A stretch of 56,581 nt of DNA from an archaeon (GCA_041645325.1 JBAZQI010000003.1:1-56581); one strand, 5' to 3'; positions 7,599 through 54,811 are shown, counted from the stretch's first letter. Numbers and translations: made by a program. The notes: generated from the letters alone by a model not told the origin.

Positions 7599-7671
7599 CA
7601 TAGGTACATCCCTCAAATAAATGCCTTTTTTAACAGTTCTTGTTTTTTGTCTTTCAGGGTAATGAAACTTG

Positions 7672-15092: not shown

Positions 15093-15095
15093 CGC

Positions 15096-19137: not shown

Positions 19138-19163
19138 ATAATTATCCTTCAAACAAACTTTTT

Positions 19164-20072: not shown

Positions 20073-20832
20073 AAAATCCGCGCCCTGTTTTTCTTCCAAG
20101 CTTTTTTTCCTTTACAAGCTTACTGATAACATTCGGCGGCTTAAATTTCTTGTCATTGGTCTGCTTGTACAAGCTAACCATGATATCGTATACTGTATCC
20201 AATCCAATTAAATCCATTAAAGCAAAAGGGCCCAAAGGATGGTTAAGGCCGCACTTAACGGCCAAATCCATGTCAAAGCAACTTATCTTTTTTTCTTCGG
20301 ACATGTTTATTGAGTCAACCAAGAAAGGGAAAAGCAGGGCATTGACAATAAACCCTGGCGAATCATTCAGCACCACTGTTTTCTTGCCTGCTGTTTCAAC
20401 AATGCCTTTTGCAAAAGATACTGTTTCAGCGCCTGTTTCCTTTCCTTTGACTATCTCAACAAGCGGCATCTTGTGGGCCGGGTTGAAAAAATGCACTCCA
20501 AGAAAATTCTTTTTATTTGAAACAAAGCCTGAAAGCAGGTCTATTGACATTGAAGAAGTATTTGAGGCTACAATGGCATCAGCTTTGCCGTACTTTGATA
20601 TGCTTTCCAAGGCTTTTTTCTTTGCATTAACCTCTTCAAAAACAGTTTCTATAATAAAATCGCATTCAGCCAATCTGCCAAAGTCCATAGTAAAAGCAAT
20701 TCCGTTTTCTATTTCATCGCTCTTGTCTACGCAATCCACCAACAGAACATTAAAATTATTGCCAGCAAACAGTTTTGCTATGCTTTTGCCCATGGTTCCT
20801 GCGCCAACAATGCCAATATTCCTATTATCCAT
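20062..20832 (-). CDS. hbd: 3-hydroxyacyl-CoA (3-hydroxybutyryl-CoA) dehydrogenase
   Basis: IGIVGAGTMGKSIA, FFNPAHKMPLVEIV, NDSPGFIVNALLFPF and HPLGPFALMDLIGLD form the canonical 3HCDH N- and C-terminal domain motifs. Confidence 0.88.
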   Translation of the reverse strand: MDNRNIGIVGAGTMGKSIAKLFAGNNFNVLLVDCVDKSDEIENGIAFTMDFGRLAECDFIIETVFEEVNAKKKALESISKYGKADAIVASNTSSMSIDLLSGFVSNKKNFLGVHFFNPAHKMPLVEIVKGKETGAETVSFAKGIVETAGKKTVVLNDSPGFIVNALLFPFLVDSINMSEEKKISCFDMDLAVKCGLNHPLGPFALMDLIGLDTVYDIMVSLYKQTNDKKFKPPNVISKLVKEKKLGRKTGRGFYEY

Positions 20833-22532: not shown

Positions 22533-24233
22533 TTATTTGCCTAAAATAAAATTTCCAATTACCAAACAATCAACTCTTTTATCTTTGAACGCATTTATTG
22601 CATCTACTGGTGAACATACAATCGGTTCTTCATGTGCATTAAAAGAAGTGTTTACAAACAGGGGCAAGCCACTGGCATCCTGATAAGCTTTTAATGTCTG
22701 ATAATAAAGTTTGTTTGATTCTTTGCAAACAACTTGCGGCCTTGCAGTTCCATCGACATGAACAACAGCCCCTGCCATTTTTTGCTTTTCTTTTGGAACA
22801 TCGAAAGTAATCGTCATAAACTTTGAAGGATACTTTGCATTTTCATAACCTGTAAAATAGTTCTTGGCTTCTTCTTCTAAAATTGAAGGGGCAAAAGGCA
22901 TAAACTCGGTTCTTGAAAGCCGCTTATTCAAACTGTCATTAATGCCCTTATCAGTCGGCTTTGCAACAATGCTTCTGTTGCCCAGGGCACGCGGGCCGTA
23001 TTCCATTCTTCCCTGGAACAAGCCGACAATCTTTCCTTCATCAATTCTGGCGGCAACCTCTGTGGGAATGTCATTGTAGTCTTTTGCGTTGAGTCCATTG
23101 TCAGTGATAGCCTGCTGGATTTCTTCATTGTTGAATTCCGGCCCAAAGTAAACGTCATTTAAGGCAAAGGGCTTGATGTTGGCTTGGTTTAGTGCTGCGC
23201 CAAGTGCAGTGCCGCCATCGCCCATATGTGGATGCACAAATATGCTTTCAACATTTGGCAAAGCCAAAAGCCTTTGGTTTAGTTTAACATTTGCAAACAC
23301 GCCTCCGGCCAAAACAACATTAGAAATGCCCGTCTTGTCAACCCAATATGAAACATACTTTGACAAAACATTTTCCAAATGAATTTGAACACTTGCAGCT
23401 AAATTCGCCTTATTAAAATTTCCAAGTTCTTTCTTAATCTTATTCAAAGCAGCATCATGTTTTGCTTTTAAATAATTAACAGTTCTGCCATTATTGTAAT
23501 TAATCCAATTCTCGAAATTTGGCAAGTATTCTGGTTTTCCAAAAGCGGCCAAACCAGTAATTTTTCCCTCATGCTTGTTTGAAGTAAAACCGCATAACTC
23601 TGTGACATAAGAGTAATATTTTCCAACACTATTGTAACTGCCTAACTCACTCAATCTTTCCATGTGACCATTTTCAGCAACAGAAATAGTTGAACACAAA
23701 GCATCGCCAGCAGCATCATAAGTGACAACTAAAGCCTTATTCAAACCGCCGGTAAAGTAAGCACAGGCGGCATGGCATTGATGATGCTCCACAAATTCAA
23801 CATCGCAATCAAAACCATGTCCCTTCAACCAAGCTTTCAACTTCTTATTGCGCTTCCAATACCATTGACCATACAAATTTTCGCCAAACTTTTGGATTCC
23901 AATGAAATAGTCTTTATTAAACAAATCTCCCAACAAAAAGGCGGCAGAACCAAGAAATTGCCTTGGCCCCATTATTACATTCATTGTCTGTACTTGCTTT
24001 AATGAAATTGGTTTTGGAAACCAGGGGGCATGCCAATTCGCAACAGCAATCAAATCAATATCCTTTGGCTCAAGTTTAGCCTGCTTCAAAACGCAATCAA
24101 TAGACTGTAGAGGAAGTCCTCGCACAAGTTTTATGCGATTAAGCCTTTCCTCATTCACAGCCGCAACAATCTTCCCATCCTTTACAACAGCAACTCCGCA
24201 ATCATGCCCATCACTCAACCCCAATACGTTCAT
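22533..24233 (-). CDS. Carbamoyltransferase, NodU/CmcH family
   Basis: MNVLGLSDGHDCGVAVVKDGKIVAAVNEERLNRIK is the ASKHA-type N-terminus typical of the family. ...HHQCHAACAY... is present, and the C-terminal YrdC-like part has NTSFNAHEEPIV. Confidence 0.9.
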   Translation of the reverse strand: MNVLGLSDGHDCGVAVVKDGKIVAAVNEERLNRIKLVRGLPLQSIDCVLKQAKLEPKDIDLIAVANWHAPWFPKPISLKQVQTMNVIMGPRQFLGSAAFLLGDLFNKDYFIGIQKFGENLYGQWYWKRNKKLKAWLKGHGFDCDVEFVEHHQCHAACAYFTGGLNKALVVTYDAAGDALCSTISVAENGHMERLSELGSYNSVGKYYSYVTELCGFTSNKHEGKITGLAAFGKPEYLPNFENWINYNNGRTVNYLKAKHDAALNKIKKELGNFNKANLAASVQIHLENVLSKYVSYWVDKTGISNVVLAGGVFANVKLNQRLLALPNVESIFVHPHMGDGGTALGAALNQANIKPFALNDVYFGPEFNNEEIQQAITDNGLNAKDYNDIPTEVAARIDEGKIVGLFQGRMEYGPRALGNRSIVAKPTDKGINDSLNKRLSRTEFMPFAPSILEEEAKNYFTGYENAKYPSKFMTITFDVPKEKQKMAGAVVHVDGTARPQVVCKESNKLYYQTLKAYQDASGLPLFVNTSFNAHEEPIVCSPVDAINAFKDKRVDCLVIGNFILGK

Positions 24234-25432
24234 TTCAAAGTCTCCTTATACTTCTTAACCATTTTTTTAACAAATATATCATAACTCAAATCATTTTTTA
24301 CTGTTTCTATACCGGCTTTTGAAAGGGTTGAAGCCAAATCCTTGTCCGACAAAATTCTGCAAACAGCCTTTGCCAAAGCGCTTGAATCCTTTTGCGGGAC
24401 AAGCAAACCATTAATGCCGTTTTTAACAACGTCGGGAATCCCGCCAACATTACAGGAAACAACAGGAACCCCGCAAGCCATTGCTTCTCCAATTACAAGC
24501 CCTTGACCCCCCTCTGTTTCTCCTTTGCTGTCAACAATCGCAGGCAAACAAAAAACATCAGCGCCGGCATAATAACTTGGCAAATCCGGAATAGGGATGC
24601 GCCCAGCCAAATAAACACTCTTGCTCAAACCTAATTCATCAACAACAGATTTGATTTTAAATTCTTCGGGTCCGCCGCCGCCAATAACAAGCAAAGCATT
24701 AGGGCATTTTTTAAGAATTTCAGGCATTGCTTTAACAAGATAAACATGGCCTTTCCTTTCAACAAGGCGACCCATTACAAAAATAACAGGGCGTTTTAAA
24801 AAATTCCGCCCAACAACTTTCTCATTATACCGTTTAGTATTAACCCCCCCACAAAACAAAACATCATGCTCTCTCGCCCCGATGCCAACAGCAGCGTCAT
24901 GGGTAGCAACACTATTAGAAGTCAACAATTTTGCAAACTTTGTTGGAAAACTTGCCAAAAAAGGCAAGCCAATCTTTTTAGACAGGTAAATCTCTGCTCC
25001 AAACAAATGCAAAGCAAAACAAAAATTGCAAAAATGCAAAGCAATCAATGCGGCCCATCCTTGGGGAAAAGCCCACAAAACCTGAACAACATCAGGCTCA
25101 AATTCCCTCACTGCTTTTCTTAAAGCAAAAGCATTCGACAAAATATACGGAACAAACTGTGCCTTTGCCAGCAAACTTCCCTTAATATTCTGCGCAATTC
25201 CACAGCCATAAGCAATCTTTTGCATTGAAACCGGCCACCAATACTGGAATCTGCGAATTTTCACGCCATCAATTTCATGCTCTTTGCACGCATTGCTGCA
25301 ATGGGCAGCCAAAACCATTACTTTATGTCCATTTCTTTCAAAAGCAGTTGCAACCTCGTAAACAAAATCAAGCTGCTCATCTTTCTTAGACTTCAAGAAA
25401 GTTGAAGTAACAAACAAAACCTTCAAATACAT
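24230..25432 (-). CDS. Glycosyltransferase family 4 (GT-B, Glycos_transf_1)
   Basis: GRLVERKGHVYLV...ETEGGQGLVIGEAMACGVPVVSCNVGGIPDVV is the E-x7-E region. It overlaps the carbamoyltransferase gene by 4 nt. Confidence 0.88.
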   Translation of the reverse strand: MYLKVLFVTSTFLKSKKDEQLDFVYEVATAFERNGHKVMVLAAHCSNACKEHEIDGVKIRRFQYWWPVSMQKIAYGCGIAQNIKGSLLAKAQFVPYILSNAFALRKAVREFEPDVVQVLWAFPQGWAALIALHFCNFCFALHLFGAEIYLSKKIGLPFLASFPTKFAKLLTSNSVATHDAAVGIGAREHDVLFCGGVNTKRYNEKVVGRNFLKRPVIFVMGRLVERKGHVYLVKAMPEILKKCPNALLVIGGGGPEEFKIKSVVDELGLSKSVYLAGRIPIPDLPSYYAGADVFCLPAIVDSKGETEGGQGLVIGEAMACGVPVVSCNVGGIPDVVKNGINGLLVPQKDSSALAKAVCRILSDKDLASTLSKAGIETVKNDLSYDIFVKKMVKKYKETLK

Positions 25433-26508: not shown

Positions 26509-27930
26509 ATGACGTCCATTGAAAAGGGGACCTTTTACCTGTTTGGCTCAAGGTTTATCTTTTTCCTCTCGGGCTATGTTTTGCTGTTTGTCCTGGGCAG
26601 GTTTTTGCTTGACCCGGTGGAGTTCGGGATTTTCGGAGTGGTGTTCTCGATTGTCTCTCTCGCCAACACGGTCCTGCTTTATGGGATACAGCAGGCTGTT
26701 TCAAAGTTTGTTTCTGAAACCCCTTCAAAAGCAAAGGTGATTTTGCGCCAGGCATTAAAGCTTCAGTTTTTCTTTTCAATAGCGGTTTTCCTCAGCCTCT
26801 TTCTCTCCGCTGATTTTCTTGCATTTGTCCTGAACGACCCGAGCATTGGTCCATACCTGCGCATTGCTGCCTTTATTCCCCTGTTCCAGCCATTCTTTTC
26901 CGCAATACTTGGCTACCTTAACGGCCTAAAAAAGTTCAAGGAACAGGCAATTTTCACAAACTTTTACAGGATTCTGCACGCTGCCTTTCCAATAGCGCTT
27001 GCCTTAATCGGCTTTTCCCTTTTTGGAGTCTTTGCAGGCCTTGCTTTGTCCTCACTTGCCGCCCTTATAATGGGCCTTATTTTCATTGGTTCTGGAAAGC
27101 CCGGGTTTTTTTCAAAGAAAAAACTGCTTTTCTTTGCCGCCCCAATAATTATTTACCTCTTGCAGCAGAACGCCTTCCTAAGCATTGACCTACTGTTCCT
27201 GAAAGCGCTTGCAGGCCAGAACAGCAGCCTTTTGGCAGGCTATTACACCGTAGCCCAAACCCTTGCAAGGCTTCCATTTGAGCTTGCCGTAACCCTTTCC
27301 ATTGTACTTTTCCCCCTGGTCTCTGAAACAGTTTACTCCCGGAAAAAGGAAAAATCCGCTTTTTACATCAGGAACGCCTACAGATATTCCTTTCTTGCCG
27401 TTGCGCCTTTTGCGGCAATGTTTTTCTACACGTCCGCGGAATTGATTGCGCTGGTTTACGGCTCAGCTTACATCGCAGGCTCCGCAGCTTTAAGCATTCT
27501 TTCAGTTGCCTTTGTGTTCATGACAATTTTTGTGATTTCGGAAACAATAATTACGGCAAAAGGAAACCCAAAGGCAGCGGTTGGCCTTGCTTTCCTTGCC
27601 CTGATTGCCGATGCGTTGCTTTTGTATTTCCTTATTCCGCTGAACGGGCTTGAGGGTGCGGCAACGGCCTCTCTTTTTTCAATGCTTTTCGGGGCCCTCA
27701 TTTCAACAGCGTTTGTTTTCATCCACTTCCGCCGCTTCCCATGCAAAAGCATTGCAAAAATATGCATTGCATGCATTCCGGTAATCCTGATTTCGTTTTT
27801 TGTCCATGCCTCGGGCTTTTTCCTGATCGTAGAGTATGCCCTGCTTTCCCTGGTCTTCCTTGCAGCCCTGTTCCTGCTTGGAGAAGTCAAAGAAACCGAC
27901 CTGCAAAGGGTTATAAAAATGGTTATCTAG
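26509..27930 (+). CDS. Wzx-type oligosaccharide flippase (MOP superfamily polysaccharide biosynthesis protein)
   Basis: This 473-aa polytopic membrane protein has an N-terminus (FGSRFIFFLSGYVLLFVLGRFLLDPVEFGIFGV) and helix count typical of Wzx/RfbX. Confidence 0.8.
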   Translation: MTSIEKGTFYLFGSRFIFFLSGYVLLFVLGRFLLDPVEFGIFGVVFSIVSLANTVLLYGIQQAVSKFVSETPSKAKVILRQALKLQFFFSIAVFLSLFLSADFLAFVLNDPSIGPYLRIAAFIPLFQPFFSAILGYLNGLKKFKEQAIFTNFYRILHAAFPIALALIGFSLFGVFAGLALSSLAALIMGLIFIGSGKPGFFSKKKLLFFAAPIIIYLLQQNAFLSIDLLFLKALAGQNSSLLAGYYTVAQTLARLPFELAVTLSIVLFPLVSETVYSRKKEKSAFYIRNAYRYSFLAVAPFAAMFFYTSAELIALVYGSAYIAGSAALSILSVAFVFMTIFVISETIITAKGNPKAAVGLAFLALIADALLLYFLIPLNGLEGAATASLFSMLFGALISTAFVFIHFRRFPCKSIAKICIACIPVILISFFVHASGFFLIVEYALLSLVFLAALFLLGEVKETDLQRVIKMVI

Positions 27931-27969: not shown

Positions 27970-29382
27970 TCACTTCATGTACTGCAGCAGGCTCCACCCG
28001 CTTCTAAAGCTTGACTTTAGCAAATTCCAGTTTGTGAGCCTCTGCTTTAAAGCCTTGAGCATGTAACTTGGCCTCAGGTAGTATTCCTTGTATGCCTGCT
28101 TGAGCCAGTACTGCATGTCCTGCATGCTGAGGCCGGGGTATTCAAAAATCGGCCTGATTTTTCCCTCGCAGTCAAGGTAGTCTGCCCAGTTTTTGAACCT
28201 GAGGTAACCTTTGCTTTTGAGAAACTCGTAGAATTCTGTTCCGGGGTATGGCTGGGCAACGCTGAACTGCACAAAATCAATGTTAAGCTGTTTTGCAAAC
28301 TCTATGGTTTTCTTGATGCTTTCAACTGTTTCGCCAGGCATTCCAAAAACAAATGTTCCATGCACCTGTATGCCTGCATCCTCAAATAATTTTGCGGCTT
28401 TTTTTGCCTGTTCTGTTGTGGCCCTCGGCCCCTTTTTCATGTTTTTCAGCTGTTCGTCACAGCCTGATTCAAAGCCAACCTTTACCAAAAAACATCCGGC
28501 TTTTTTCATTGCCTCCGCAATCTCCTTGTCAACGGAGTCAACCCTGCTGTAGGCGGCCCAGGGAAGGTTAATTTTTTCCTTAACCATCAAGCCGCACAAT
28601 TCAAGCAGGTATTTTTTGTTGACATTGAGGGTGTCATCGTTGAATAATACGCTTTTGAACTTGAAATTTTCTTTAAGGTGCTTGAGTTCTGCGACAACGT
28701 TTTCAGGAGACCTCATCCTGTAGCCCCTGCCATACATCAGCTGGGGCCCTGCGCAATAAATGCATTGGTGCGGGCAGCCCCTTCCGGCAAGCACAAAAGT
28801 GAAGGGATTCTTGTACAATGCAGAGTAATATTTTTCGTTTGGCAGCAGTTCCCTTGCCGGAAACGGAAGCTTATCAAGGTCCTGAATCAGCGGCCTTGCC
28901 TTGTTATGTATAATCTTTTTGCCTTTCTTGAACGAAATGCCTTCAATTTCCTCAAGCCTGGCTCCTTCGGCCAAATCCCTTATGGTGTAATCGTATTCGC
29001 CCCTTGCCACAATATCAAAGCCCTTGTCCAAGGTGTCTTCGGGAACAGCTGTTGCATGCACTCCGACAGCAATTGTTTTTGCGCCTGTTTTTGCCGCGAT
29101 TTTTTTTGCAATGCCCGCATCGCTTTCAACAGAGGCAGTTGAGGTAAGCATTACCACATACTCTGGTTCAAAGCCTGAAATTCTTTCAATTGTGGCTTCT
29201 TCGCCGATTTCAAGGGCTGGCGCGTCGATTAGGTCAACCTCGTGCCCGTTTCTTTGGCAGACTGCTGCGGCATAGCCCAGCATTATCGGCGGATGCAGGG
29301 CTTTTTGGGGCGAGACTGCCTGAAACCTGACTTCCCTGTTGTACGTCCCCCTGAACGGTGGGTTCAAAAATACGATATTCAT
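27970..29382 (-). CDS. Cobalamin-binding (class B) radical SAM enzyme
   Basis: An N-terminal B12-type Rossmann domain (LGYAAAVCQRNGHEVDLIDA) and the radical SAM cluster motif GRGCPHQCIYC are present. It is a paralog of 51606-53090. Confidence 0.88.
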   Translation of the reverse strand: MNIVFLNPPFRGTYNREVRFQAVSPQKALHPPIMLGYAAAVCQRNGHEVDLIDAPALEIGEEATIERISGFEPEYVVMLTSTASVESDAGIAKKIAAKTGAKTIAVGVHATAVPEDTLDKGFDIVARGEYDYTIRDLAEGARLEEIEGISFKKGKKIIHNKARPLIQDLDKLPFPARELLPNEKYYSALYKNPFTFVLAGRGCPHQCIYCAGPQLMYGRGYRMRSPENVVAELKHLKENFKFKSVLFNDDTLNVNKKYLLELCGLMVKEKINLPWAAYSRVDSVDKEIAEAMKKAGCFLVKVGFESGCDEQLKNMKKGPRATTEQAKKAAKLFEDAGIQVHGTFVFGMPGETVESIKKTIEFAKQLNIDFVQFSVAQPYPGTEFYEFLKSKGYLRFKNWADYLDCEGKIRPIFEYPGLSMQDMQYWLKQAYKEYYLRPSYMLKALKQRLTNWNLLKSSFRSGWSLLQYMK

Positions 29383-29502
29383 GCCTTCACCAAAACACGG
29401 TTTATAAGTAATAGCAACAAGGTTTTCTTTTTTAACTTAACCAATTTGGTACAATCTTTGGGATTAAATCAAATTAAAACACTTGGGGCTTAAATTGTTT
29501 TT

Positions 29503-30795
29503 ATGGCAAAGCATTCGATAACCCTGGTTAACCCTGCTTTCGGCGTTTATGTTGCGCATCCCAGCCCGCCGCTTGGACTAGCCTATCTCAAGGCCGCTCT
29601 TGAAAAGAACGGAATACCTGCTGTGCTTGTTGATGAAACAGCAGGAATGTCAATAACGCCTGAATCAATTGAAACGGAGTGGGTCGGCATTTCGGTTTTT
29701 ACGCCAACAGCCAAGATGGCTTACGAAATGGCCGATGCATTCAGGGCAATCGGGAAAAAGGTTGTGCTTGGCGGCCCGCATGTTTCAATACTGCCAAAAG
29801 AGGCGCTGAGGCATGCCGACAAGGTTATTGTCGGCGAGGGCGAAAAAAGCATTCTTGAGATTTTTTCGTCAAAGAAAAAGGTAATAAGCAGCCTGCTCAT
29901 AAAAGACATTGATTCAATTCTTTTTCCGGACTGGCACGGCCTTCCTTTGGAAAAGTACACGGCGCCTACAAGAAAGCACGCCTATCTCAAGGTCATGACT
30001 TCAAGGGGCTGCCCCTGGGGCTGTGTCTACTGCTTTAAGGGCGTTTTTGGCCGCTGTTACAGGATGAGATCGTTCCAAAACGTGGTTGATGAGGTTGAGG
30101 CATTGCAAGCCGAGTATGGCACAAGGGAAATTGCTTTCATTGATGACAATTTTTCGCAAAACAGGGAAAGGACAGTTGACATCTGCCGGGAAATCCTGCA
30201 AAGGCGGATAAAGATTGACTGGGCCTGCCCGAATGGCGTGAGGGTTGACACAATGGATTTGCCTTTGCTTAAGCTCATGAAAAAGGCGGGCTGTTACCAG
30301 CTTTCTTTCGGCGTTGAGTCTGGAAACCAGGAAGTGCTTGACAAAATCGGAAAAGGCATTAAATTGGAGCAGGTTGAAAATGCAGTGGGGTGGGCGAAGG
30401 AAGCTGGCATTGAAACAATCGGCTTTTTTATGATAGGCCTGCCTTTTGACAATGAGAAAACAATGCAGCAGACAATTGATTTTGCAAAAAAATTGCCGTT
30501 GGACCTTGTGCAGTTCACGGTAACAGTTCCATACCCCGGAACAGAGCTTTACGGCATGGTTGAAAAAAAAGGCAGGTTTTTGGTAGAGGACTGGAGCGCT
30601 TTCGGCAGCTATTCCGGAAAAGCCTATTACGAGTTCGGGGCCCTTGACAAGGACTTGGTCGAAAGAATGTACAAGAAGGCCTACAAGGAGGTTTACTTCA
30701 GGCCCGGTTATGCCCTGAAAAGGGTTGCAAAGAATCCAAAGCTTTTGCTCTCAGGCGTGAAATACTTCTCGGCAATGTTCGGGAAAAAGAATTGA
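29503..30795 (+). CDS. Cobalamin-binding (class B) radical SAM enzyme
   Basis: LGLAYLKAALEKNGIPAVLVDE is the B12 domain and SRGCPWGCVYC is the C-x3-C-x2-C motif. It is divergent from 27970-29382. Confidence 0.88.
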   Translation: MAKHSITLVNPAFGVYVAHPSPPLGLAYLKAALEKNGIPAVLVDETAGMSITPESIETEWVGISVFTPTAKMAYEMADAFRAIGKKVVLGGPHVSILPKEALRHADKVIVGEGEKSILEIFSSKKKVISSLLIKDIDSILFPDWHGLPLEKYTAPTRKHAYLKVMTSRGCPWGCVYCFKGVFGRCYRMRSFQNVVDEVEALQAEYGTREIAFIDDNFSQNRERTVDICREILQRRIKIDWACPNGVRVDTMDLPLLKLMKKAGCYQLSFGVESGNQEVLDKIGKGIKLEQVENAVGWAKEAGIETIGFFMIGLPFDNEKTMQQTIDFAKKLPLDLVQFTVTVPYPGTELYGMVEKKGRFLVEDWSAFGSYSGKAYYEFGALDKDLVERMYKKAYKEVYFRPGYALKRVAKNPKLLLSGVKYFSAMFGKKN

Positions 30796-30930: not shown

Positions 30931-31908
30931 CTAGCTGATGTCATTTTTTTCCGTTTCCTTTTTTTTAATCCTATAAAGGATTTCTTCCTGAATCCTTTTC
31001 TGCCTGTCAATGAGGTCTGCAAGCAGGGCAAGGACAAGCAGCAGCAATCCCACGACAATCAGCAGGACATCAAGGTTGACAAGCCAAGCAGGCACTGCCG
31101 GATTTTGGGGAAATTGTGATTCCATCCAAAGGTAGAATGCTTGGATTACCCCAAAGCCTGCCATTAAGATTCCGATGCTTCCAAAGAACTGCAGGGGCTT
31201 GTAGTCGCGCAGTGTCCTTATGATGATCATCATGGCCCTGATGCCGTAAATGTACCAGTGCTTTACTACCCTGCTTTTTCCTTTGCGTTCGCCTTCGACT
31301 TTGCAGGCAACCTCTTCAATTCTCATGCCTTTTTGCGACAAGTCCATCAAAACCTCTTGGGTGTACGTAAACCTTGCAAACAGGTTTGTCCTCAGCGCGG
31401 CTTCCCTGCTGTAAGCCCTGAAGCCGCACTGCGTATCGGTAAAACTGCTTCCTGTGAACAGGTTTATTATTTTGGTAAACAGCCTGTTTCCAAACCTTTT
31501 AACAGAAGGCATTTTCGGCTCAAGCTTTTTGTCCAAAAACCTGCTGCAGGTGACAACGTCTGCTTTGCCCTGCAGTATTGGCTTCACGAGCTTTGGAATG
31601 TCTTTCGGGTTGAATTGGCCGTCTGCGTCAATGTTGACGATAATGCCTGCGCCCATTTTCAGGGCTGTGTCAAGCCCTGTTTGGAATGCCATCCCAAGCC
31701 CCTTGTTTCCCTTGTGTGAAACGATTTTGTCAGCGCCTGCGTTTTTGGCTTTTTGAACTGTTTTGTCAGTGCTGCCGTCGTCCACAATAAGCACGAGCGT
31801 TTTTTCAATGCCTTGTATTTTTCTTGGAATGGCGTTTATTACAGCGGCAATTGTCTTTTCCTCATTGAAGGCCGGAATCAGCACGACAAGCTTTTGCGTT
31901 TCCTTCAT
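30931..31908 (-). CDS. GT2 glycosyltransferase, polyprenyl-phosphate-sugar synthase-like (DPM1/GtrB-like) with C-terminal TM helices
   Basis: VVLIPAFNEEKTIAAVI...LVLIVDDGSTDKT...NIDADGQF are present, with a hydrophobic C-terminal ~90 aa. Confidence 0.88.
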   Translation of the reverse strand: MKETQKLVVLIPAFNEEKTIAAVINAIPRKIQGIEKTLVLIVDDGSTDKTVQKAKNAGADKIVSHKGNKGLGMAFQTGLDTALKMGAGIIVNIDADGQFNPKDIPKLVKPILQGKADVVTCSRFLDKKLEPKMPSVKRFGNRLFTKIINLFTGSSFTDTQCGFRAYSREAALRTNLFARFTYTQEVLMDLSQKGMRIEEVACKVEGERKGKSRVVKHWYIYGIRAMMIIIRTLRDYKPLQFFGSIGILMAGFGVIQAFYLWMESQFPQNPAVPAWLVNLDVLLIVVGLLLLVLALLADLIDRQKRIQEEILYRIKKKETEKNDIS

Positions 31909-32043
31909 ATTTAACCAATTCTGCCTTTTAACTCTTTTAAAACCGTTATTTTTTGATTAACGTACTATACTATTATGGTTTTCTTTAAATACCCTTTCGG
32001 ATTAACTCTAGTAAATGCCATCCGGTTTTTTTCAGGGCTTTTT

Positions 32044-32113: not shown

Positions 32114-33670
32114 ATGTTTTCCATCGGGAAAAAAGGCTTTTTTGGGCAAAGCCTTGAGGCAAAAATATTTGCTGCCATAATAGTTTTGGCTCTTTTTGCA
32201 AGGATTTTTGTGCTTTTTGCATTGCCTGACACTGCCCTGACAGACAGCATGTACCATTTGTCCATTACCAAATACATCGTGGAAAATCACGCCCTGCCTT
32301 TTTATGGAATACCGGAAGCAGGCGTGGTTGGCATGCCTGTTCCGTTGTTCCATATTTTAACAGCCGGCTTTTTCGTACTTTTCCAGTTGCCTGTTACCCT
32401 TGCCTTTGCAAAAGTGTTTCCGGCCATTTTCTCTTTCCTGCAGCTGCTGCTTTCTTTTTTGATTCTCAGGAAATTGTTTCCAAAAAACTGGGTTTTTGGT
32501 TTTGCGTTTGTGGCAATCAGCCCTTTATTGGTTATCTTTGGCGCGGTCAATTATCTGGAAACCCTTGCATCGGTAACAGTGCTGTTATGCTTTTTTGTCT
32601 ACTGGTGCTATGTTGAAACAGGCCGCAAAATTTTCCTTGTGGCAATGCCGCTTGCGCTCATGCTTCTTGCAATTTCCAAGGAAAATGCCACTGTTTTGGT
32701 TCCTGTGTTTTTTGTTTTTTTCCTGTATGAAATAATCAGGAAAATGCCTTCAAAAGGCTTGGGGCGCATTGCCTGGACTGCCGGCTTTGCAATTGCCTCT
32801 GTCCTTCTTTGCTCTGCATGGTTTGCCGTGAACTTTGCGGCAACAGGCAGCCTTGGCTCGGCTTTTGCCGCCGGCGCAGGCAGCATGGCTGCTGTACTGC
32901 AGGTTCCTGTCGGCTTTGAATCAATTTTCTTTTACCCGCTTAATTTCAATTCGGGCTTTTGGTTTTTCCTGCCGCAGGGCTTTGAATCAGCGCCTTTTGG
33001 AATTTCACAGGAACTGGCTTTTGCGGCCTTTACTTTGGTGAGTTTTCCTGTCCTGATGCTGGTTTTTTTTGGCCTTGCAAAAGGCCTTCTTGCCGGGAAA
33101 GAGCCGCGTTTCAAGGCTTTTCTTTTGCTTGGACTTTGCCTTGCCGTATCACTTGGAGTATTATTTTTGAGGGGCCAAAGGTTTGTGCATGGCAGGATGC
33201 TTTTGCCTGTGCTGCCCCTGCTAGGCATCGCCTTTTCCTGCGCGTTTGCGGAAATCAAAAGCGCCAATTGGAAAAGATTTTTGGCAGCCGTCTTCATGCT
33301 TTTTGCATTGTACTCTGCGGCCTTTTCAAGCCTTTATGCAATGCATTTCAACGAGGATTACAACAGCCATGCCCCCTTATACCAATTTGTCAAAGAGCTG
33401 CCGGAAGGCAGCATTGTGGCAATCCACGCAAACAAGGTAAGGCAGATTGAGTCCATTTCAGGCAAAGAAACTGTTCCCTACCCTAAATTTGCCGGGCTTG
33501 AGCCAAACCAGCTTTATTCAAAGCTTGTTGAGCTGAATGTTACGCATTTGGCGGAAACCTGCTACAAAAACCCCTGGGACAAGGTCATTTTGGATGAGCT
33601 TGAAAGCCAGGGCCTTATAGCAATTGTTTTTTCCGACAGCTGCTCAACTTTATATGACGTGAAAAGGTGA
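32114..33670 (+). CDS. Polytopic GT-C-like glycosyltransferase (ArnT/PMT, GT39/GT83-like) with a C-terminal soluble domain
   Basis: It has roughly 12 predicted TM helices, a first loop LPDTALTDSMYHLSITKYIVENHALPFYG, and a ~110-aa hydrophilic C-terminus. I prefer the ATG at 32114; the track ORF begins at 32015, inside the repeat element. Confidence 0.62.
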   Translation: MFSIGKKGFFGQSLEAKIFAAIIVLALFARIFVLFALPDTALTDSMYHLSITKYIVENHALPFYGIPEAGVVGMPVPLFHILTAGFFVLFQLPVTLAFAKVFPAIFSFLQLLLSFLILRKLFPKNWVFGFAFVAISPLLVIFGAVNYLETLASVTVLLCFFVYWCYVETGRKIFLVAMPLALMLLAISKENATVLVPVFFVFFLYEIIRKMPSKGLGRIAWTAGFAIASVLLCSAWFAVNFAATGSLGSAFAAGAGSMAAVLQVPVGFESIFFYPLNFNSGFWFFLPQGFESAPFGISQELAFAAFTLVSFPVLMLVFFGLAKGLLAGKEPRFKAFLLLGLCLAVSLGVLFLRGQRFVHGRMLLPVLPLLGIAFSCAFAEIKSANWKRFLAAVFMLFALYSAAFSSLYAMHFNEDYNSHAPLYQFVKELPEGSIVAIHANKVRQIESISGKETVPYPKFAGLEPNQLYSKLVELNVTHLAETCYKNPWDKVILDELESQGLIAIVFSDSCSTLYDVKR

Positions 33671-33676
33671 TTTTTT

Positions 33677-35248
33677 TTGGGAAAAGAGCTTTCTTTGATT
33701 GCAAGGGGCGCAGGGTTTTATTTTGCCGGCTTTGCCATTAGCAAGGTTTTGGCCTACATTTACAGGGTCCTGGTGGCAAGGACCCTAGGCCCTGCGGATT
33801 TCGGAATCTTTTCACTCGGCGTGGCTGTTCTTGGGATCGTGCTCGTTTTTGCCGCGCTTGGACTTTACCAGGGCATTCTTCATTTTGTGGCAGTGTACGA
33901 CAGCACAGGCGAGCCTGCAAAGGTAAGGGGAACAATCCTTTTTGGATTGAAGTTGCAGCTTGTTTCTTCCATTATTTTTGCGCTGGCAATGTTTTTGTCA
34001 GCGGATTTTGTCGCGGTTTATTTTTTCCACGAGCCCTCAGCCGCGCTCGTCATAAAGATTCTTTCCGTTGCCCTGCCGTTTTACGTGCTCACATCCAATT
34101 TGATGATTCTTGCACAGGCTTTCAAAAAAATCGAGTACAAGATTCTTTTAAGGAACGTGATTGAGAACATTATAAAGATTGCCATTACCGCCGCACTCAT
34201 TTTCTTCGGCTTCGGCCTGTTCGGCATAACAGCAGGCCTTGCCCTGAGCATTACCGCGACTTTCTTCATTTCGCTTTACCTTGTTCACAAAAAGGTTTTT
34301 CCGCTGTTCAAGCGCGGCGAAAAGCCGGTGTATTCCGCCAGGCAGATTTTTTCCTACAGCTGGCCGCTCCTGGCCGTGGGCTTTTTCAGTTTATTGCTTT
34401 CCTCCACAGACACGATAATGCTCGGCAATCTTTCTGAAGCCTATGATGTGGGCATTTATAACGTCGCACAGCCCACAGCAAACCTGCTTCTTATAGCGTC
34501 TTTCGCTTTCGGGTCCTTGTTTTTGCCGGTCATTACAGGGCTTTGGGCGCAGAAAAAAGTGGCGGAGTTTGCCACGACCTTTAAGGTTGTCACAAGATGG
34601 ACTGTTGCAACCGCTTTTCCCTGCCTGCTTTTTACCCTGCTGTTTGCCTCGGAAATCCTCGGCGTCATGTTTGGCAATGTTTATGCGGAGGGCGCAGGCG
34701 CCCTGATGATTTTGTCCCTGGGTGTCTTTTCAATGTCTTTGGGCGGTTCAACCTCCTCAATTCTCGAAAGCATCAGGAAAACAAAGCTGGTTTTCCTGAA
34801 TTCTGTTTTCTGCGGCCTGCTTAATGTCGCATTAAACGCATGGCTTATCCCGGTTTTTCAGCCAAGCGGAGACGCAATAATCGGCGCCGCTATCGGAACC
34901 GCGATTTCTTATTCATTGTGGAACCTGCTCGCCCTTGCAGAGGTTTACGCCCTGATAAAGATTCACCCCTATAACAGGGCATACATTTCGCCTATTGTTG
35001 CGTCCTTTATTTCCATTGCGGTGTTTTTTGCGCTTAAAGCCGCAATTCCCCCAATCCAGTCCTTTTCTTTCCCGATAAACTTTGTGGCATTGTCCGCCTT
35101 CGGCTGCTTTTTCCTCGCATTATACGGCCTTCTTTTTGTTGTGCTGCGCGGAATCCAGGCCGAAGACCTTGCTGTGTTAAAGAGCCTTGAAAACAAAACC
35201 GGGTTCAGGGTGAAGTTTGCAAGGGATTTCGTAAAAAGGTTCAGTTGA
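33677..35248 (+). CDS. Wzx-type oligosaccharide flippase (second copy)
   Basis: ARGAGFYFAGFAISKVLAYIYRVLVARTLGPADFGIFSLGVAV is present. The 523-aa protein is polytopic and has a TTG start. Confidence 0.82.
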   Translation: MGKELSLIARGAGFYFAGFAISKVLAYIYRVLVARTLGPADFGIFSLGVAVLGIVLVFAALGLYQGILHFVAVYDSTGEPAKVRGTILFGLKLQLVSSIIFALAMFLSADFVAVYFFHEPSAALVIKILSVALPFYVLTSNLMILAQAFKKIEYKILLRNVIENIIKIAITAALIFFGFGLFGITAGLALSITATFFISLYLVHKKVFPLFKRGEKPVYSARQIFSYSWPLLAVGFFSLLLSSTDTIMLGNLSEAYDVGIYNVAQPTANLLLIASFAFGSLFLPVITGLWAQKKVAEFATTFKVVTRWTVATAFPCLLFTLLFASEILGVMFGNVYAEGAGALMILSLGVFSMSLGGSTSSILESIRKTKLVFLNSVFCGLLNVALNAWLIPVFQPSGDAIIGAAIGTAISYSLWNLLALAEVYALIKIHPYNRAYISPIVASFISIAVFFALKAAIPPIQSFSFPINFVALSAFGCFFLALYGLLFVVLRGIQAEDLAVLKSLENKTGFRVKFARDFVKRFS

Positions 35249-35306: not shown

Positions 35307-36338
35307 TTAAATAATCCCTGCTTCCTTCAAAAGCAGCCTGAGTTCCTCCCTGCTGAGGGCCTTTGCATTTTTTGAATCAATGTTGCAGGTTTTGCCATAC
35401 TGGCTCTCTGTCTTTTTTTCCTGAATTGTGCCGACAAGGTCGGGCAAAGAATGAATCTTGAACATCAGCTCCTCTTCCTCCATGTTGCCGCATTCGTCCT
35501 GCGTCATCAATTCCTCAAACAGCTTTTCTCCGCAGCGCCTTCCGATTATTTTCCGCTTAATCTGCTCTGGCTTGAATCCATATGCCGGTGCAAGCTCTTC
35601 AATCATCACTTCCGCAAGGTCCTCAATCCTCATCACCGGCATTTTAAGGATATAAATGTCCCCGGCTTTTGCCTCGGTCGTTGCCTTCAGCACAAGGTCA
35701 ACTGCCTTCGAAATGCTCATGACAAAGCGCGTCATGTCAGTATCGGTTATGGTTACAGGGCCGCCTGCCTTTATCTGCTTCTTCATCAGCGGGATGACAG
35801 AGCCGTTGGAGTCAAGCACGTTTCCAAACCGGACACAGGAAAACACGGTCCTCTTTTTGCCCTTGTAGCTGTTTGCATTAATCGTCAGCCTTTCAGCAAG
35901 CAGCTTGGTTGCGCCCATGACATTCACGGGATTTACCGCCTTGTCAGTGCTGATTGTAATCATCTTTTCCACTTCTGCGTGCAAAGCAGCCTCAATCACG
36001 TTCTGCGTGCCGAAAACATTTGTCTTCGCCGCCTCAAAGGGATTGTATTCGCACAATGGCACATGCTTCAAAGCGGCTGCGTGGAAGATGATATCAATGT
36101 CTTCCACAGCCATCATCATTCTTTCCCTGTCCCTGATGTCGCCAATCAGAAACCCCACGTTCATGGGGGAGCCGAGCTCGTGCTTTAGCTCAAACTGCCT
36201 GTTTTCGTTTATATCAAGGCTTCTTACGCTTTTTGGCCTGAACTTGAGGATGCTTCTCAGGATTTCGCTTCCGATTGAACCGGCGCCTCCTGTAATCAGG
36301 ACCTTCTTTCCCTCAAAAAAGTTTTTGCGTGAAGCCAT
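35307..36338 (-). CDS. pseB: UDP-GlcNAc 4,6-dehydratase, PseB/FlaA1/CapD-like (Polysacc_synt_2)
   Basis: KKVLITGGAGSIGSEILRSIL is present. It is a soluble ~340-aa short form and the last gene of the nonulosonic acid operon. Confidence 0.82.
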   Translation of the reverse strand: MASRKNFFEGKKVLITGGAGSIGSEILRSILKFRPKSVRSLDINENRQFELKHELGSPMNVGFLIGDIRDRERMMMAVEDIDIIFHAAALKHVPLCEYNPFEAAKTNVFGTQNVIEAALHAEVEKMITISTDKAVNPVNVMGATKLLAERLTINANSYKGKKRTVFSCVRFGNVLDSNGSVIPLMKKQIKAGGPVTITDTDMTRFVMSISKAVDLVLKATTEAKAGDIYILKMPVMRIEDLAEVMIEELAPAYGFKPEQIKRKIIGRRCGEKLFEELMTQDECGNMEEEELMFKIHSLPDLVGTIQEKKTESQYGKTCNIDSKNAKALSREELRLLLKEAGII

Positions 36339-36344
36339 GCTAAT

Positions 36345-37475
36345 CTAGCTCTCCCTGAAAAAACTTTTAATACTATCCACTACAAAATCAATCTCTTTTT
36401 CCTTAATTCCTGGCCAAAAAGGGAGGGAAAGCGCCCTTTTCGACAGCCGCTCTGTAACAGGCAGCATTCCTTCTCCTGTTCCAAGCCTTCTTCTGTACAC
36501 TGCTTTCAAGTGCACCGGCCAAAAGTAAACCTTTGACATAATGCCCTGCTTTGCCAGGTGCTGCTGCAGGGAATCCCTGCTTTTTTCTTCCACAAAAACC
36601 GGGTACATCTGGTAGACCGGCCTGCTTGCCGGCAATTCCTTAAGCGTTTCAATTTTCTCAACCTCTGAAAGGGCTTTGGCGTAGTAAGCAGCCGCCTTGG
36701 CCCTCATTTCAATCATCTTCTCTGCTTTTGCAAGCTGGCTATTGGCAAGGGCAGCCAAGGCGCTGGGCATCCTGTAATTGTATCCAATCTCTGCATAGTC
36801 CTCCTGCCCTGTGCTTGAAAAGTAATCCTCGCTGCTCCTGCCGTGTGACCTTAAAAGCTTCAGCTTGCCGGCAAGCTCTTTGTCATCCGTTACAATCGCC
36901 CCGCCTTCACCCGCAGCAACAAGCTTGTTCTGGCAAAAGCTGTACATGCCGGCTTTTCCAAAACAACCCGCCATTTTTCCGCCAATCCTCGCGCCCAGCG
37001 ATTCCGCCGCGTCCTCCACCAATGCAATGCCTTTCTCTTCGGCTATCTCCGCAAGCCGTTCAATGTCCCTTGCCGCAAAGCCTGCATAATGGGTCGGCAG
37101 AATCGCGGCTGTTTTTCCGGTTATCCTTTTTTCCACGTCATTTGCTTCCAGTGCACAGGTATCGGCTTCGATATCGGCAAACACAGGCTTGCCGCCGGCC
37201 AGCAGCACAGCATTAACGCTTGAAATAAACGTAAAACTCGGCACAATCACTTCTTTGCCATTTACGCCCAACGCAAGAAGCGCGGCATGCAATGCGCTTG
37301 TCCCGCTGTTGAAGGCAACAGCATGGTTCCTGCCGCAATACTCCTTCAGGCTTTCTTCAAAGCAGGCTATCTCAGGCCCCTCCGCCCAAAAGCTTCCCCT
37401 GCTTATGACTGAGCCAACGGCCTTGAGGTCGGCCTTGTCCCAGCTGATTCTGAACAGAGGAATTTTCCAGTCCAA
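36345..37475 (-). CDS. pseC: DegT/DnrJ/EryC1-family PLP-dependent sugar aminotransferase (PseC-like)
   Basis: VIVPSFTFISSVNAVLLAGGKPVFADIE...SFCQNKLVAAGEGGAIV carries the lysine in the expected context. Confidence 0.88.
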   Translation of the reverse strand: MDWKIPLFRISWDKADLKAVGSVISRGSFWAEGPEIACFEESLKEYCGRNHAVAFNSGTSALHAALLALGVNGKEVIVPSFTFISSVNAVLLAGGKPVFADIEADTCALEANDVEKRITGKTAAILPTHYAGFAARDIERLAEIAEEKGIALVEDAAESLGARIGGKMAGCFGKAGMYSFCQNKLVAAGEGGAIVTDDKELAGKLKLLRSHGRSSEDYFSSTGQEDYAEIGYNYRMPSALAALANSQLAKAEKMIEMRAKAAAYYAKALSEVEKIETLKELPASRPVYQMYPVFVEEKSRDSLQQHLAKQGIMSKVYFWPVHLKAVYRRRLGTGEGMLPVTERLSKRALSLPFWPGIKEKEIDFVVDSIKSFFRES

Positions 37476-37480
37476 TCAAA

Positions 37481-37885
37481 TCACTTCTCCAGCTTTTTCA
37501 CAACCCTTGCAGGGATTCCAAACGCGACCACGCCAGCCGGCACATCCTTGTTCACAAAACTGTGCACCCCTATTACGCTGTTTTTCCCGATTGTCACGCC
37601 TGGCATTATCACAGTGTGGCTTCCGACCCTGCAGCCCTCTTCCAGCACAACCTTTCCTTTCTTGCCGTCAATTGTTGACTCGCTGTAAATGCTGCAATGT
37701 GACCCGATTTGCACGTTGTCGCCGATTTCAACGCCGTGCTTTGCATGGATATAAGTAAAAGCTCCGATGTCTGTCCTGTTCCCAAGCTTCAAACCCTCTT
37801 TGTGCTGAACCATCCAATTGTACTTTGTCAGCTTCCCTTCCTCAATTTTTGGGAATTCCCATTCTTTGAATCTTTCTCCGACCAT
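37481..37885 (-). CDS. Small left-handed beta-helix (hexapeptide repeat) acetyltransferase
   Basis: Hexapeptide repeats run IGDNVQIGSHCSIY...VLEEGCRVGSHTVIMPGVTIGKNSVIG. It is 134 aa. Confidence 0.8.
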   Translation of the reverse strand: MVGERFKEWEFPKIEEGKLTKYNWMVQHKEGLKLGNRTDIGAFTYIHAKHGVEIGDNVQIGSHCSIYSESTIDGKKGKVVLEEGCRVGSHTVIMPGVTIGKNSVIGVHSFVNKDVPAGVVAFGIPARVVKKLEK

Positions 37886-37898
37886 TTTCTCACCTTGC

Positions 37899-39707: not shown

Positions 39708-39714
39708 AGAAAAT

Positions 39715-40764: not shown

Positions 40765-40862
40765 AGTTTCCCCTAAATGATTTTCCGAAAAGAAAAGCTG
40801 TCTCTTATTTATCTGCCTCTTTTTAGTTTAAAATGCGCTTGGTTCAATTGTCGAATCTGGCT

Positions 40863-46881: not shown

Positions 46882-46892
46882 AAAAATCGCCT

Positions 46893-53834: not shown

Positions 53835-53836
53835 TT

Positions 53837-54809: not shown

Positions 54810-54811
54810 TT

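Follow-up and report, generated by a model that had tools for sequence, protein, structure and literature searches.

Why does an archaeal locus for surface-glycan assembly carry three genes of an enzyme class whose studied members nearly all serve antibiotic, pigment, cofactor, or membrane-lipid pathways? Class-B radical S-adenosylmethionine (SAM) enzymes, which perform some of the hardest carbon chemistry, were predicted as a divergent gene pair, with a third copy further on, in a 56,581-nucleotide stretch of archaeal DNA (GCA_041645325.1, JBAZQI010000003.1:1-56581; hereafter the window). The original prediction proposed that they lead to C-methylated or otherwise radically modified sugars. 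We refer to the three proteins as rSAM-A, rSAM-B, and rSAM-C (A, B, and C). The window forms part of a metagenomic contig of 80.6 kb (ERZ27249422 k141_1063715). Glycan assembly is encoded across nearly the whole window (a region of about 55 kb), with A, B, and C all inside it, and the nearest named homologs of the three come from metagenome-assembled genomes of Candidatus Iainarchaeum/Diapherotrites (DPANN archaea); judged by homology, the host of the window is an Iainarchaeia (Diapherotrites, DPANN) archaeon. Our answer, given tentatively, is that A, B, and C act as soluble sugar-tailoring enzymes of class-B type while the surface glycan is assembled, each working with a membrane-anchored family 2 glycosyltransferase (GT2), and that in the module around A and B the reaction would most likely be a cobalamin-dependent C-methylation that preserves C1 of the sugar.

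Three radical SAM proteins and their family placement

A is encoded at 27970-29382 on the minus strand (470 amino acids), B at 29503-30795 on the plus strand (430 amino acids), and C at 51606-53090 on the minus strand (494 amino acids; the public gene call starts four codons later and yields 490 amino acids). The open reading frame (ORF) coordinates of all three are exactly those predicted. Each protein clears the Pfam gathering threshold both for B12-binding PF02310 (32.1 bits; A, 57.0; B, 55.0; C, 58.5) and for Radical_SAM PF04055 (29.5 bits; A, 85.7; B, 96.0; C, 62.7), and the expected N-terminal B12-binding domain followed by a radical SAM domain is thus present at the profile level in each of them and at the fold level in A. 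Each has a single CxxxCxxC cluster motif C-terminal to the B12 domain, with the strings quoted earlier found as given (AGRGCPHQCIYC at C203, C207, and C210 of A; TSRGCPWGCVYC at C170, C174, and C177 of B; AGRGCPYKCKFC at C213 of C), and the motif is invariant across 46 homologs. A tblastn search of the window returned exactly these three paralogs. In the homolog alignments, residues S81, T82, S84, D88, and G107 of the N-domain are invariant; going by the canonical B12-binding motifs, we take them to lie in cobalamin-contact regions.

A and B diverge from an AT-rich intergenic region of 120 nt (29383-29502), as predicted, which would hold the promoters of both genes. At 30%, its GC content falls below the 45.5% of the window and ranks lowest among the 16 intergenic gaps longer than 60 nt; a TATA-like TTTATAA stands near A. 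Upstream of B, a block (TTTTTTAACTTAA(C/T)C.ATTTGGTACAAT, also given as TTTTTTAACTTAACCAATTTGGTACAAT) is kept in a related locus (L179; related loci are numbered with L) with 81% protein identity. Another relative, L180, also has a divergent A/B pair, with a gap of 115 nt, and the divergent layout is one of several arrangements among relatives.

Among NCBIfam models, that of HpnJ (TIGR03471; equivalog cutoff, 577.6 bits) gives each of the three proteins its highest score. A and C match it over their full length (353.1 and 422.6 bits), and B matches it in its C-terminal part only (188.5 bits) and reaches no NCBIfam cutoff. Behind the HpnJ model come those of BchE, P-methyltransferases, ladderane-type, MgmA, AprD4, and HpnR, none above 167 bits, and none of the curated methylase families (PhpK, Sden_1168, HpnR, KedN5, TsrM-type, and MgmA) comes near its cutoff with A, B, or C. 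Orthology to HpnJ itself was ruled out by the scores below the cutoff and by the missing hopanoid context: neither the window nor the orthologous loci contain hpnI, hpnK, hpnH, or shc, and the genes found there are glycan genes. Membership of the AprD4 family (NF033070) was ruled out by scores of 112, 99, and 65 bits against a cutoff of 500 and by the cluster motif, which in the aligned AprD4 is CxxxCxxxC. The BchE model (TIGR02026) gives 167, 132, and 148 bits against a cutoff of 481.35, and the window context holds no photosynthesis genes; the labels "anaerobic Mg-protoporphyrin IX monomethyl ester cyclase" and "YgiQ" carried by some homologs are over-annotations. The names alone of two other curated models, TIGR04295 ("B12_rSAM_oligo") and TIGR04157 ("glyco_rSAM_CFB"), to neither of which A, B, or C belongs, suggest that curators had earlier tied radical SAM proteins to oligosaccharide or glycosyltransferase contexts.

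Pairwise identities follow the same order. C, A, and B share 35%, 32%, and 28% identity with the annotated HpnJ of a Paraburkholderia megaplasmid and 24-30% with annotated BchE (B, 28%), and within the window A is 37% identical to C and 33% to B. In a neighbor-joining tree (462 columns, 60 bootstraps), whose references were one HpnJ, one BchE, and no methylases, the A clade groups with a clade of HpnJ and the C/Lawsonia sequences with 96% bootstrap support; within the latter, HpnJ branches as the sister of the C clade with the same support. This HpnJ-like clade excludes BchE and also B, which lies among other DPANN and bacterial B12-type radical SAM proteins. Sixteen aligned HpnJ-like sequences, HpnJ included, are collinear over their full length and share 44 invariant columns. 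On these sequence grounds, A and C are HpnJ-like proteins but not HpnJ, and B is an unclassified class-B protein. The three copies, which had been treated alike, are therefore alike only as far as A and C are concerned; B stands apart in profile scores, identities, and tree position.

An AlphaFold (AF2) model of A was obtained with high confidence (predicted local distance difference test score, pLDDT, 91.6; predicted template modeling score, pTM, 0.90), and the whole-protein fold comparison of the radical SAM proteins concerns this model. Next after AprD4, to which we return below, it aligned over its whole length with the cobalamin-bound TsrM, MgmA, OxsB, CysS, and TokK at TM-scores of 0.65-0.74. 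The isolated N-domains of A and B both found 4Q37 as their best match, an N-terminal fragment titled "Radical SAM protein" that is counted among B12-dependent radical SAM structures (PMC12931638). We regard cobalamin binding by A, B, and C as plausible, and hold to that word because AprD4, with a related N-domain, binds no cobalamin (PMC12931638).

Conserved gene modules around A, B, and C

The genes around A and B (module 1, 24.2-35.2 kb) come in the order GT4(-), TylF(+), Wzx(+), A(-), B(+), GT2(-), a gene for a 518-amino-acid membrane protein(+), and a second Wzx(+). The flippase and the polyprenyl-phosphate-sugar synthase-like GT2 that had been predicted to flank the pair are both there: a Wzx-type flippase at 26509-27930 (plus strand; PF01943, PF13440), convergent with A, and a GT2 at 30931-31908 (minus strand; PF00535). 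The family 4 glycosyltransferase (GT4) lies at 24230-25432 (minus strand; PF00534, PF13692), and the second flippase, of Wzx/MOP type and syntenic with the membrane protein and the GT2, at 33677-35248 (plus strand; PF01943, PF13440, MatE). In type, this membrane-anchored GT2 falls with the polyprenyl-phosphate sugar synthases (ArnC/DPMS/GtrB/AglJ-like). Its best NCBIfam model is AglJ (145 bits), followed by PpgS, Dol-P-hexose transferase, and ArnC, all below their cutoffs; in the PDB it has full-length matches to ArnC and GtrB and a match to DPMS. Two hydrophobic segments stand at its C-terminus.

The membrane protein is encoded at 32114-33670 on the plus strand (probable start at 32114 in a 551-amino-acid ORF that opens at 32015). 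It has about 12 transmembrane segments and a small C-terminal domain, and gave no Pfam or NCBIfam match of its own even at E=1. Fold and homologs identify it as a divergent GT-C glycosyltransferase. In L009 the corresponding place is taken by a homologous PMT_2 protein (E 3e-19), and 19 of 50 homologs match PMT_2, others matching Glyco_transf_22, PMT, or ALG3; an Asp in the first loop, within the motif LPxxAxxDxxxHL, is invariant among the homologs. The top 42 PDB matches that Foldseek returned for its AF2 model (pLDDT 93.3) are GT-C-fold membrane proteins, almost all of them glycosyltransferases (STT3, AglB, ArnT, PglB, ALG9/12, Aft, Pmt). The predicted structure shows a GT-C-fold transferase, and its family is small and divergent (97 representatives).

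This arrangement recurs in relatives. L180 has the divergent A(-)/B(+) pair followed by GT2, a methyltransferase, a 560-amino-acid protein, and Wzx; L179 has B, GT2, a 513-amino-acid protein, and Wzx, with A 3.3 kb off; and L019 and L021 have Wzx(-) and GT-C(-) diverging from GT2(+), A(+), and GT4, with no B ortholog. The GT2 ortholog lies directly upstream of A in L019 and L021 and adjoins B in L179 and L180, and Wzx adjoins the GT-C ortholog in all four loci. Because A, GT2, GT-C, and Wzx are kept across these loci and B is missing from two of them, A + GT2 + GT-C + Wzx is the stable core and B a variable addition. A GT4 gene follows the A ortholog directly in L009, L011/L012, L019, L022, and L179.

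Two further features touch this module. In the window, a NodU/CmcH-type carbamoyltransferase gene (22533-24233, minus strand) overlaps the GT4 gene by 4 nt, and in L179 a carbamoyltransferase gene (8138-9877) lies between the A and B orthologs, which suggests O-carbamoylated sugars in the same glycan. An extra radical SAM gene of 463-475 codons stands next to or near A orthologs in L011 (11571-12962), L179 (6728-8119), and L180 (5053-6480) and has no counterpart in the window; its product matches PF04055 only, with no match to the B12 domain, and is about 29% identical to A in L011.

C belongs to a second module (48.5-55.8 kb), in which RmlB, an inserted toxin-antitoxin pair, an RmlA-like gene, C, an FkbM methyltransferase, GT2, and GT4 follow one another on the minus strand. 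RmlB, the dTDP-glucose 4,6-dehydratase (54812-55771), scores 450.3 bits on TIGR01181 against a cutoff of 365.1. The RmlA-like glucose-1-phosphate thymidylyltransferase directly upstream of C (53097-53849; PF00483) scores 213 bits on TIGR01208, below the cutoff. The FkbM-family SAM methyltransferase (50671-51609; TIGR01444, 110.8 bits against 37.7) overlaps the end of C by 4 nt. The GT2 partner of C (49669-50646) is again membrane-anchored, with the GT2 Pfam set and two C-terminal hydrophobic segments, and is followed by GT4 (48572-49672), the order C-GT2-GT4 being kept in L016, L018, and L099-L122. The public gene calls for C and this GT2 use other start codons. The possibility that the GT2 is an HpnI orthologue was ruled out (29 bits on the HpnI model against a cutoff of 310, and no BLASTP match). 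C and FkbM also occur as natural single-ORF fusions (P0243, 792 amino acids; P0244, 823 amino acids); such fusions, as a genomic sign, tie C to a methylation pathway on the same substrate.

Neighborhood counts for the C family were taken from 80 GTDB loci. A GT2 ortholog with at least 40% identity lies within 3 kb downstream of the C ortholog in all 18 Iainarchaeia-type loci (18/18), and a GT2_325-like gene is present in 25/40 loci of bacterial C relatives. NUDIX and NTP-transferase genes flank C orthologs, and in Lawsonia-type loci a nucleotidyltransferase gene is often found just downstream. As a side observation, clusters labeled Chloroflexota (L099, L100) and Thaumarchaeota (L101) have RmlB-RmlA-C-FkbM-GT2-GT4 in the order of the window at 74-88% protein identity; this is probably mis-binning, and otherwise a recent transfer. 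Relatives keep a 397-amino-acid protein (45766-46959, minus strand) in their C modules, at 73% identity in L018/L100; it has only faint alpha/alpha-toroid matches (prenyltransferase, GH88/GH127, ulvan lyase N).

How general is the pairing with GT2? Relatives of C occur in at least 593 GTDB species genomes; the scan was made with the C-family alignment, and the GTDB sample is therefore biased to C relatives. Their hosts include Fibrobacterota, Chitinispirillaceae, Omnitrophota, Desulfobacterales, Nitrospirota, Planctomycetota, Verrucomicrobiota, and Aenigmatarchaeota, and their sampled neighborhoods are glycan loci. In a metagenome sample with both flanks available, a co-oriented GT2 gene directly adjoins the HpnJ-like gene in 22 of 44 loci, and a GT4 gene in 3 of 44. 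A bacterial-type subclade (P0060, 43% identity to A) has GT2, a 5-nt gap, the radical SAM gene, and then a methyltransferase and a 606-amino-acid protein with no Pfam match, and in Paraburkholderia hpnI, which encodes a GT2, follows hpnJ with a 4-bp overlap. Since the pairing is seen in the C family, with A orthologs, in the P0060 group, and in hpnJ-hpnI, we call it general: an HpnJ-like radical SAM gene next to a membrane GT2 gene spans all subclades and both domains of life, and HpnI/HpnJ is the only genetically studied case. At least two B12-type radical SAM genes occur in 30 of 150 non-redundant loci, 11 of which have a B-like gene within 3 kb of an HpnJ-like gene.

These counts bear on two parts of the original prediction. 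The glycan context is indeed kept in relatives, and the sampled loci yielded no conserved non-glycan neighborhood. The view that such enzymes are unusual in cell-surface glycan loci does not stand as a matter of frequency, given the number of species genomes, and stands as a matter of characterization, the family being uncharacterized. In the literature we searched, no O-antigen, capsule, or archaeal glycan locus is described as containing B12-type radical SAM enzymes, an absence that is not proof, and no HpnJ homologs are described outside hopanoid clusters.

Substrate and chemistry

The membrane GT2, the GT-C, and the flippase next to A together point to a lipid-carrier-bound sugar, and we consider this the probable substrate; a nucleoside diphosphate (NDP)-sugar is an unlikely one. 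ArnD and MoeK5 are precedents for tailoring a sugar on its lipid, and MoeK5 methylates the first, lipid-phospho-linked sugar. HpnJ and the calditol synthase Cds likewise act after lipid glycosylation (PMC13459092; PMC9092360).

In the pathway that we propose for module 1, the GT2, of ArnC/DPMS/AglJ type, would attach a sugar, either a hexose or an N-acetylhexosamine, to polyprenyl (dolichyl) phosphate on the cytoplasmic side. SAM would be reductively cleaved by A, and by B where present, and the 5'-deoxyadenosyl radical would take a hydrogen from the lipid-bound sugar, the carbon skeleton of which would be altered. After an optional extension by GT4, Wzx would flip the product and the GT-C would pass the sugar to an acceptor outside the cell. 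In module 2, C would play a like role in a dTDP-6-deoxyhexose branch supplied by RmlA and RmlB, with the translationally coupled FkbM methyltransferase acting next and GT2 and GT4 after it; the substrate of C would be either the NDP-6-deoxyhexose or the product of the GT2.

In our proposal the reaction in module 1 would preserve C1, because a GT-C needs an intact anomeric phosphate linkage in its donor. Ring contraction removes the anomeric center, and its product would therefore be no donor for the GT-C; a C1-preserving step is more coherent with the module, and among such steps C-methylation has the highest prior. MoeK5 and Fom3, both methylases, co-cluster with HpnJ at a stringent network threshold, and most characterized class-B enzymes methylate (PMC9204698). 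For the chemistry taken by itself, we give C-methylation a substantial chance that stays short of even and regard an HpnJ-type rearrangement, that is, ring contraction, as doubtful; what remains is shared among other outcomes (dehydration, epimerization, oxidation, or cobalamin-independent reactions). Of the predicted C-methylated or radically modified sugar, the class-B architecture and the glycan context hold; C-methylation is one of several live chemistries, because A and C have their nearest characterized relative in HpnJ, whose substrate is a lipid-bound sugar and which is presumed to contract its ring without methylating it. We know of no sequence motif that separates methylases from non-methylases.

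Several points weigh against our proposal. HpnJ is placed by reviews among the few non-methylating class-B enzymes (PMC12931638), and no biochemical data are reported for any member of its family, HpnJ included (PMC13459092; PMC9092360). Archaeal B12-type radical SAM homologs related at 31-34% identity methylate, cyclize, or desaturate (bioRxiv 10.1101/2025.10.20.683597), and the chemistry therefore cannot be read from identities of 32-35%. Gene adjacency indicates functional linkage and is silent on the order of reactions, and RmlA directly upstream of C in Iainarchaeia fits an NDP-sugar substrate too. The best PDB match of the A model is the cobalamin-free AprD4 (6FD2; TM-scores 0.80/0.83 over 463 columns). 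Finally, cofactor and vitamin biosynthetic enzymes were found in only about 26.5% of Diapherotrites, for which external sources were inferred (PMC8407392).

The alternative that survives best keeps the lipid-bound substrate and lets A and C contract its ring in the manner of HpnJ and Cds; we take it seriously as a minority possibility. Hydrogen would be abstracted at C5, ring opening would leave a ketone at C5 and a radical at C1, and formation of a C1-C5 bond would give a five-membered carbocyclic cyclitol, ether- or phospho-linked to the lipid, which could serve as a stable glycolipid or lipoglycan anchor and might be extended by GT4. HpnJ is the closest characterized relative, within the same 96% clade and sister to the C family, and the pairing of radical SAM and membrane GT2 genes mirrors hpnJ-hpnI. 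Deletion of hpnJ abolishes the cyclitol ether of bacteriohopanetetrol (BHT) and leaves BHT-glucosamine; the proposal is that the lipid-bound pyranose is contracted by a radical route into a cyclopentitol, in analogy to Cds, and neither enzyme has been reconstituted (PMC13459092; PMC9204698; PMC9092360). For both, the accepted model places this contraction after the lipid has been glycosylated, and a carbocyclic sugar, caryose, is known from a lipopolysaccharide surface glycan (PMC9092360). The new tertiary hydroxyl would also offer a target to the fused FkbM protein acting as an O-methyltransferase. Module 1 speaks against ring contraction: with the anomeric center lost, the dolichyl-phosphate-linked product would be no GT-C donor, and the triad of GT2, GT-C, and flippase would be hard to explain. 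Moreover, the HpnJ equivalog cutoff is missed, no HpnK-type deacetylase gene is adjacent, and the HpnJ chemistry on which the comparison draws has never been reconstituted. A broader form of the idea, which we think rather unlikely, is that HpnJ-like radical SAM proteins and membrane GT2s are a general cross-domain machinery for making ether-linked carbocyclic (calditol- or cyclitol-like) units from lipid-bound hexoses, with HpnI/HpnJ as one specialized offshoot.

It is unlikely that the enzymes act instead on soluble nucleotide sugars before transfer, with C converting the dTDP-4-keto-6-deoxyhexose from RmlA/RmlB into a C-branched, deoxygenated, or epimerized NDP-sugar for the neighboring GT2 or GT4. 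The tight order RmlB-RmlA-C-FkbM fits this route, as do RmlA upstream of C in 11/23 Iainarchaeia-type loci and the NUDIX, NTP-transferase, and nucleotidyltransferase genes around C orthologs. By contrast, RmlA is found upstream in none of the 42 bacterial loci that extend far enough in that direction, whereas the pairing with GT2 is seen in both domains and in each of the three subclades, and the sole characterized relative acts on a lipid-bound sugar. To our knowledge, known NDP-sugar C-methylations use ordinary SAM methyltransferases, which also counts against this route.

We judge it improbable that the N-terminal Rossmann domain is cobalamin-free, as in AprD4, and that the proteins are radical dehydratases, epimerases, or oxidoreductases of sugars. 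AprD4, a sugar 1,2-diol dehydratase that works without cobalamin, is the best PDB match by sequence (E 7e-30) as well as by fold, and the cofactor supply of DPANN archaea is doubtful (PMC8407392). The sequence match is, however, confined to residues 163-394, in the radical SAM core; the AprD4 family scores lie far under their cutoff and well under those of the HpnJ model, the cluster motifs differ, all three proteins pass the Pfam gathering score for B12 binding, and their N-domains have the five invariant residues described above. Least probable is modification of an isoprenoid (the dolichol carrier or a membrane ether lipid) in the manner of the archaeal B12-type enzymes Grs, Gmm, and Ted: such enzymes are prominent as lipid-tail modifiers (bioRxiv 10.1101/2025.10.20.683597), a CDP-alcohol phosphatidyltransferase gene is present in the window (16953-17678) and one adjoins the A ortholog in L180, and B scores 142 bits on the lipid-associated model TIGR04072, but the cutoff of 360 is missed, none of the sampled loci has lipid-core biosynthesis genes, the partners being GT2, GT4, methyltransferases, nucleotide-sugar enzymes, and flippases, and the same families occur in bacteria without ether lipids.

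We therefore stay with the tailoring of lipid-bound sugars as our preferred, if provisional, reading. What is new is a known enzyme class in a conserved and unstudied wiring with GT2, GT-C, and flippase genes: a large uncharacterized HpnJ-like family, of which the C branch alone reaches the species number given above, is wired to membrane glycosyltransferases in DPANN archaea and many anaerobic bacteria. If C-methylation or ring contraction takes place, branched or carbocyclic sugars would be present in many microbial surface glycans and would have been missed by standard analysis. In the carbocyclic case, DPANN archaea would carry unrecognized carbasugar glycolipids or glycans on their surface, and so would anaerobic bacteria in hundreds of lineages (Fibrobacterota, Omnitrophota, Desulfobacterota, Nitrospirota, Lawsonia). 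For DPANN archaea, a need for cobalamin would be tied to building the cell surface, their interface with hosts. The soluble homologs and natural fusions would then offer a tractable route to reconstituting HpnJ-type chemistry.

The wider glycan region and known systems

Scans of the window found no Rfam families and no tRNAs. Besides the two modules, with their GT2 and GT4 transferases, two Wzx flippases, and RmlA/RmlB, the region encodes a Bac_transf-type initiating transferase, UDP-glucose dehydrogenases, synthesis of 3'-phosphoadenosine 5'-phosphosulfate (PAPS), a CDP-alcohol phosphatidyltransferase, a carbamoyltransferase, several class I methyltransferases, and a TylF-type methyltransferase. 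A nonulosonic-acid pathway of pseudaminic or legionaminic type (35307-42635, minus strand; PseB-like, DegT, NeuB, and CMP-sugar synthase) looks complete and includes a 602-amino-acid CMP-sugar synthase fusion (CTP_transf_3 with an Epimerase_2/Glyco_tran_28_C-like part) and a 590-amino-acid Epimerase_2/Capsule_synth-like protein. An 896-amino-acid UDP-glucose/GDP-mannose dehydrogenase (7669-10359, plus strand) has an apparent intein (a weak Intein_splicing match and a faint LAGLIDADG match); its ordinary paralog of 426 amino acids is encoded at 12089-13369.

A run of genes at 13399-16796 (minus strand) encodes an adenosine 5'-phosphosulfate (APS) kinase, an ATP sulfurylase, and a 566-amino-acid pyruvate-kinase-like protein with an N-terminal MarR-type winged-helix domain. 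In L011/L012, an A-ortholog locus, sulfatase, PAPS-reductase-like, and CysN-like genes adjoin the radical SAM gene, and these neighbors together with the APS kinase/ATP sulfurylase run hint at sulfated glycans. The group at 17773-20832 (minus strand) encodes a 490-amino-acid protein with only a weak polysaccharide-deacetylase match, an Antibiotic_NAT protein (aminoglycoside 3-N-acetyltransferase-like), and a 3-hydroxyacyl-CoA dehydrogenase, and may serve N-acyl (hydroxybutyryl-type) decoration of amino sugars. Three small toxin-antitoxin-like pairs, all on the minus strand, are scattered in the region. The first (53837-54127 and 54297-54836), a PIN-domain ORF with a 96-amino-acid partner, is inserted between RmlB and RmlA, where relatives have a NUDIX gene or nothing; the second (6674-7102 and 7077-7325) is a PIN_3 ORF with an 82-amino-acid partner, and the third (3086-3310 and 3307-3546) is HicA/HicB-like by eye.

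Among known systems, AprD4, the apramycin 1,2-diol dehydratase, resembles these proteins as the best PDB match in sequence and, for A, in fold, and in having a sugar substrate, and differs in binding no cobalamin, in its cluster motif, and in the family score. The nearest relative of C in a cultured organism is LI_RS06575 on plasmid 1 of Lawsonia intracellularis, a pig pathogen, which is 48% identical to C. A SAM methyltransferase gene stands directly after it, as FkbM does after C, in a locus with GT2 genes, GalE, a SIS-domain gene, a GHMP kinase, a HAD-family hydrolase, and a DUF2142 protein. Unlike the C module, this locus is bacterial and plasmid-borne and has a heptose-type pathway rather than RmlA/RmlB.

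MoeK5 of moenomycin synthesis is likewise a class-B radical SAM enzyme acting on a lipid-phospho-linked sugar, encoded in a glycosyltransferase-rich cluster that includes a carbamoyltransferase; its pathway is, however, one of secondary metabolism, with neither flippase nor GT-C. The best match of B in the plasmid collection is a B12-radical SAM protein of Streptomyces clavuligerus pSCL4 (32% identity, 205 bits; 29% to A and 32% to C), which is about as close to B as A is and no closer than the paralogs are generally. Its stretch (L181; NZ_CP045850.1 348188-367381), which has no PLSDB annotation, also holds an epimerase gene and two AsnB-like amidotransferase genes, and from the gene order of the moenomycin cluster we take the radical SAM gene to be a probable MoeK5 homolog.

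As a whole, module 1 resembles ArnC-ArnD-ArnE/F-ArnT and GtrA/B/C (also the mycobacterial PpgS/Rv3779) in combining a polyprenyl-phosphate GT2, a flippase, a GT-C-fold transferase, and a tailoring step. In those systems the tailoring enzyme is a deformylase or deacetylase, whereas here the step would fall to radical SAM proteins; the flippase here is of Wzx/MOP type, and the GT-C belongs to a divergent family with no Pfam match. HpnJ shares with A and C full-length collinear homology, domain order, a single CxxxCxxC motif, and coupling to a membrane GT2. Here, by contrast, the partner GT2s are not HpnI orthologs, the hopanoid genes shc, hpnH, and hpnK are missing, and the organism is an archaeon; instead, the modules contain a flippase with a GT-C or nucleotide-sugar genes, and this implies that a glycan, not a hopanoid head group, is the product that these enzymes would help to build.

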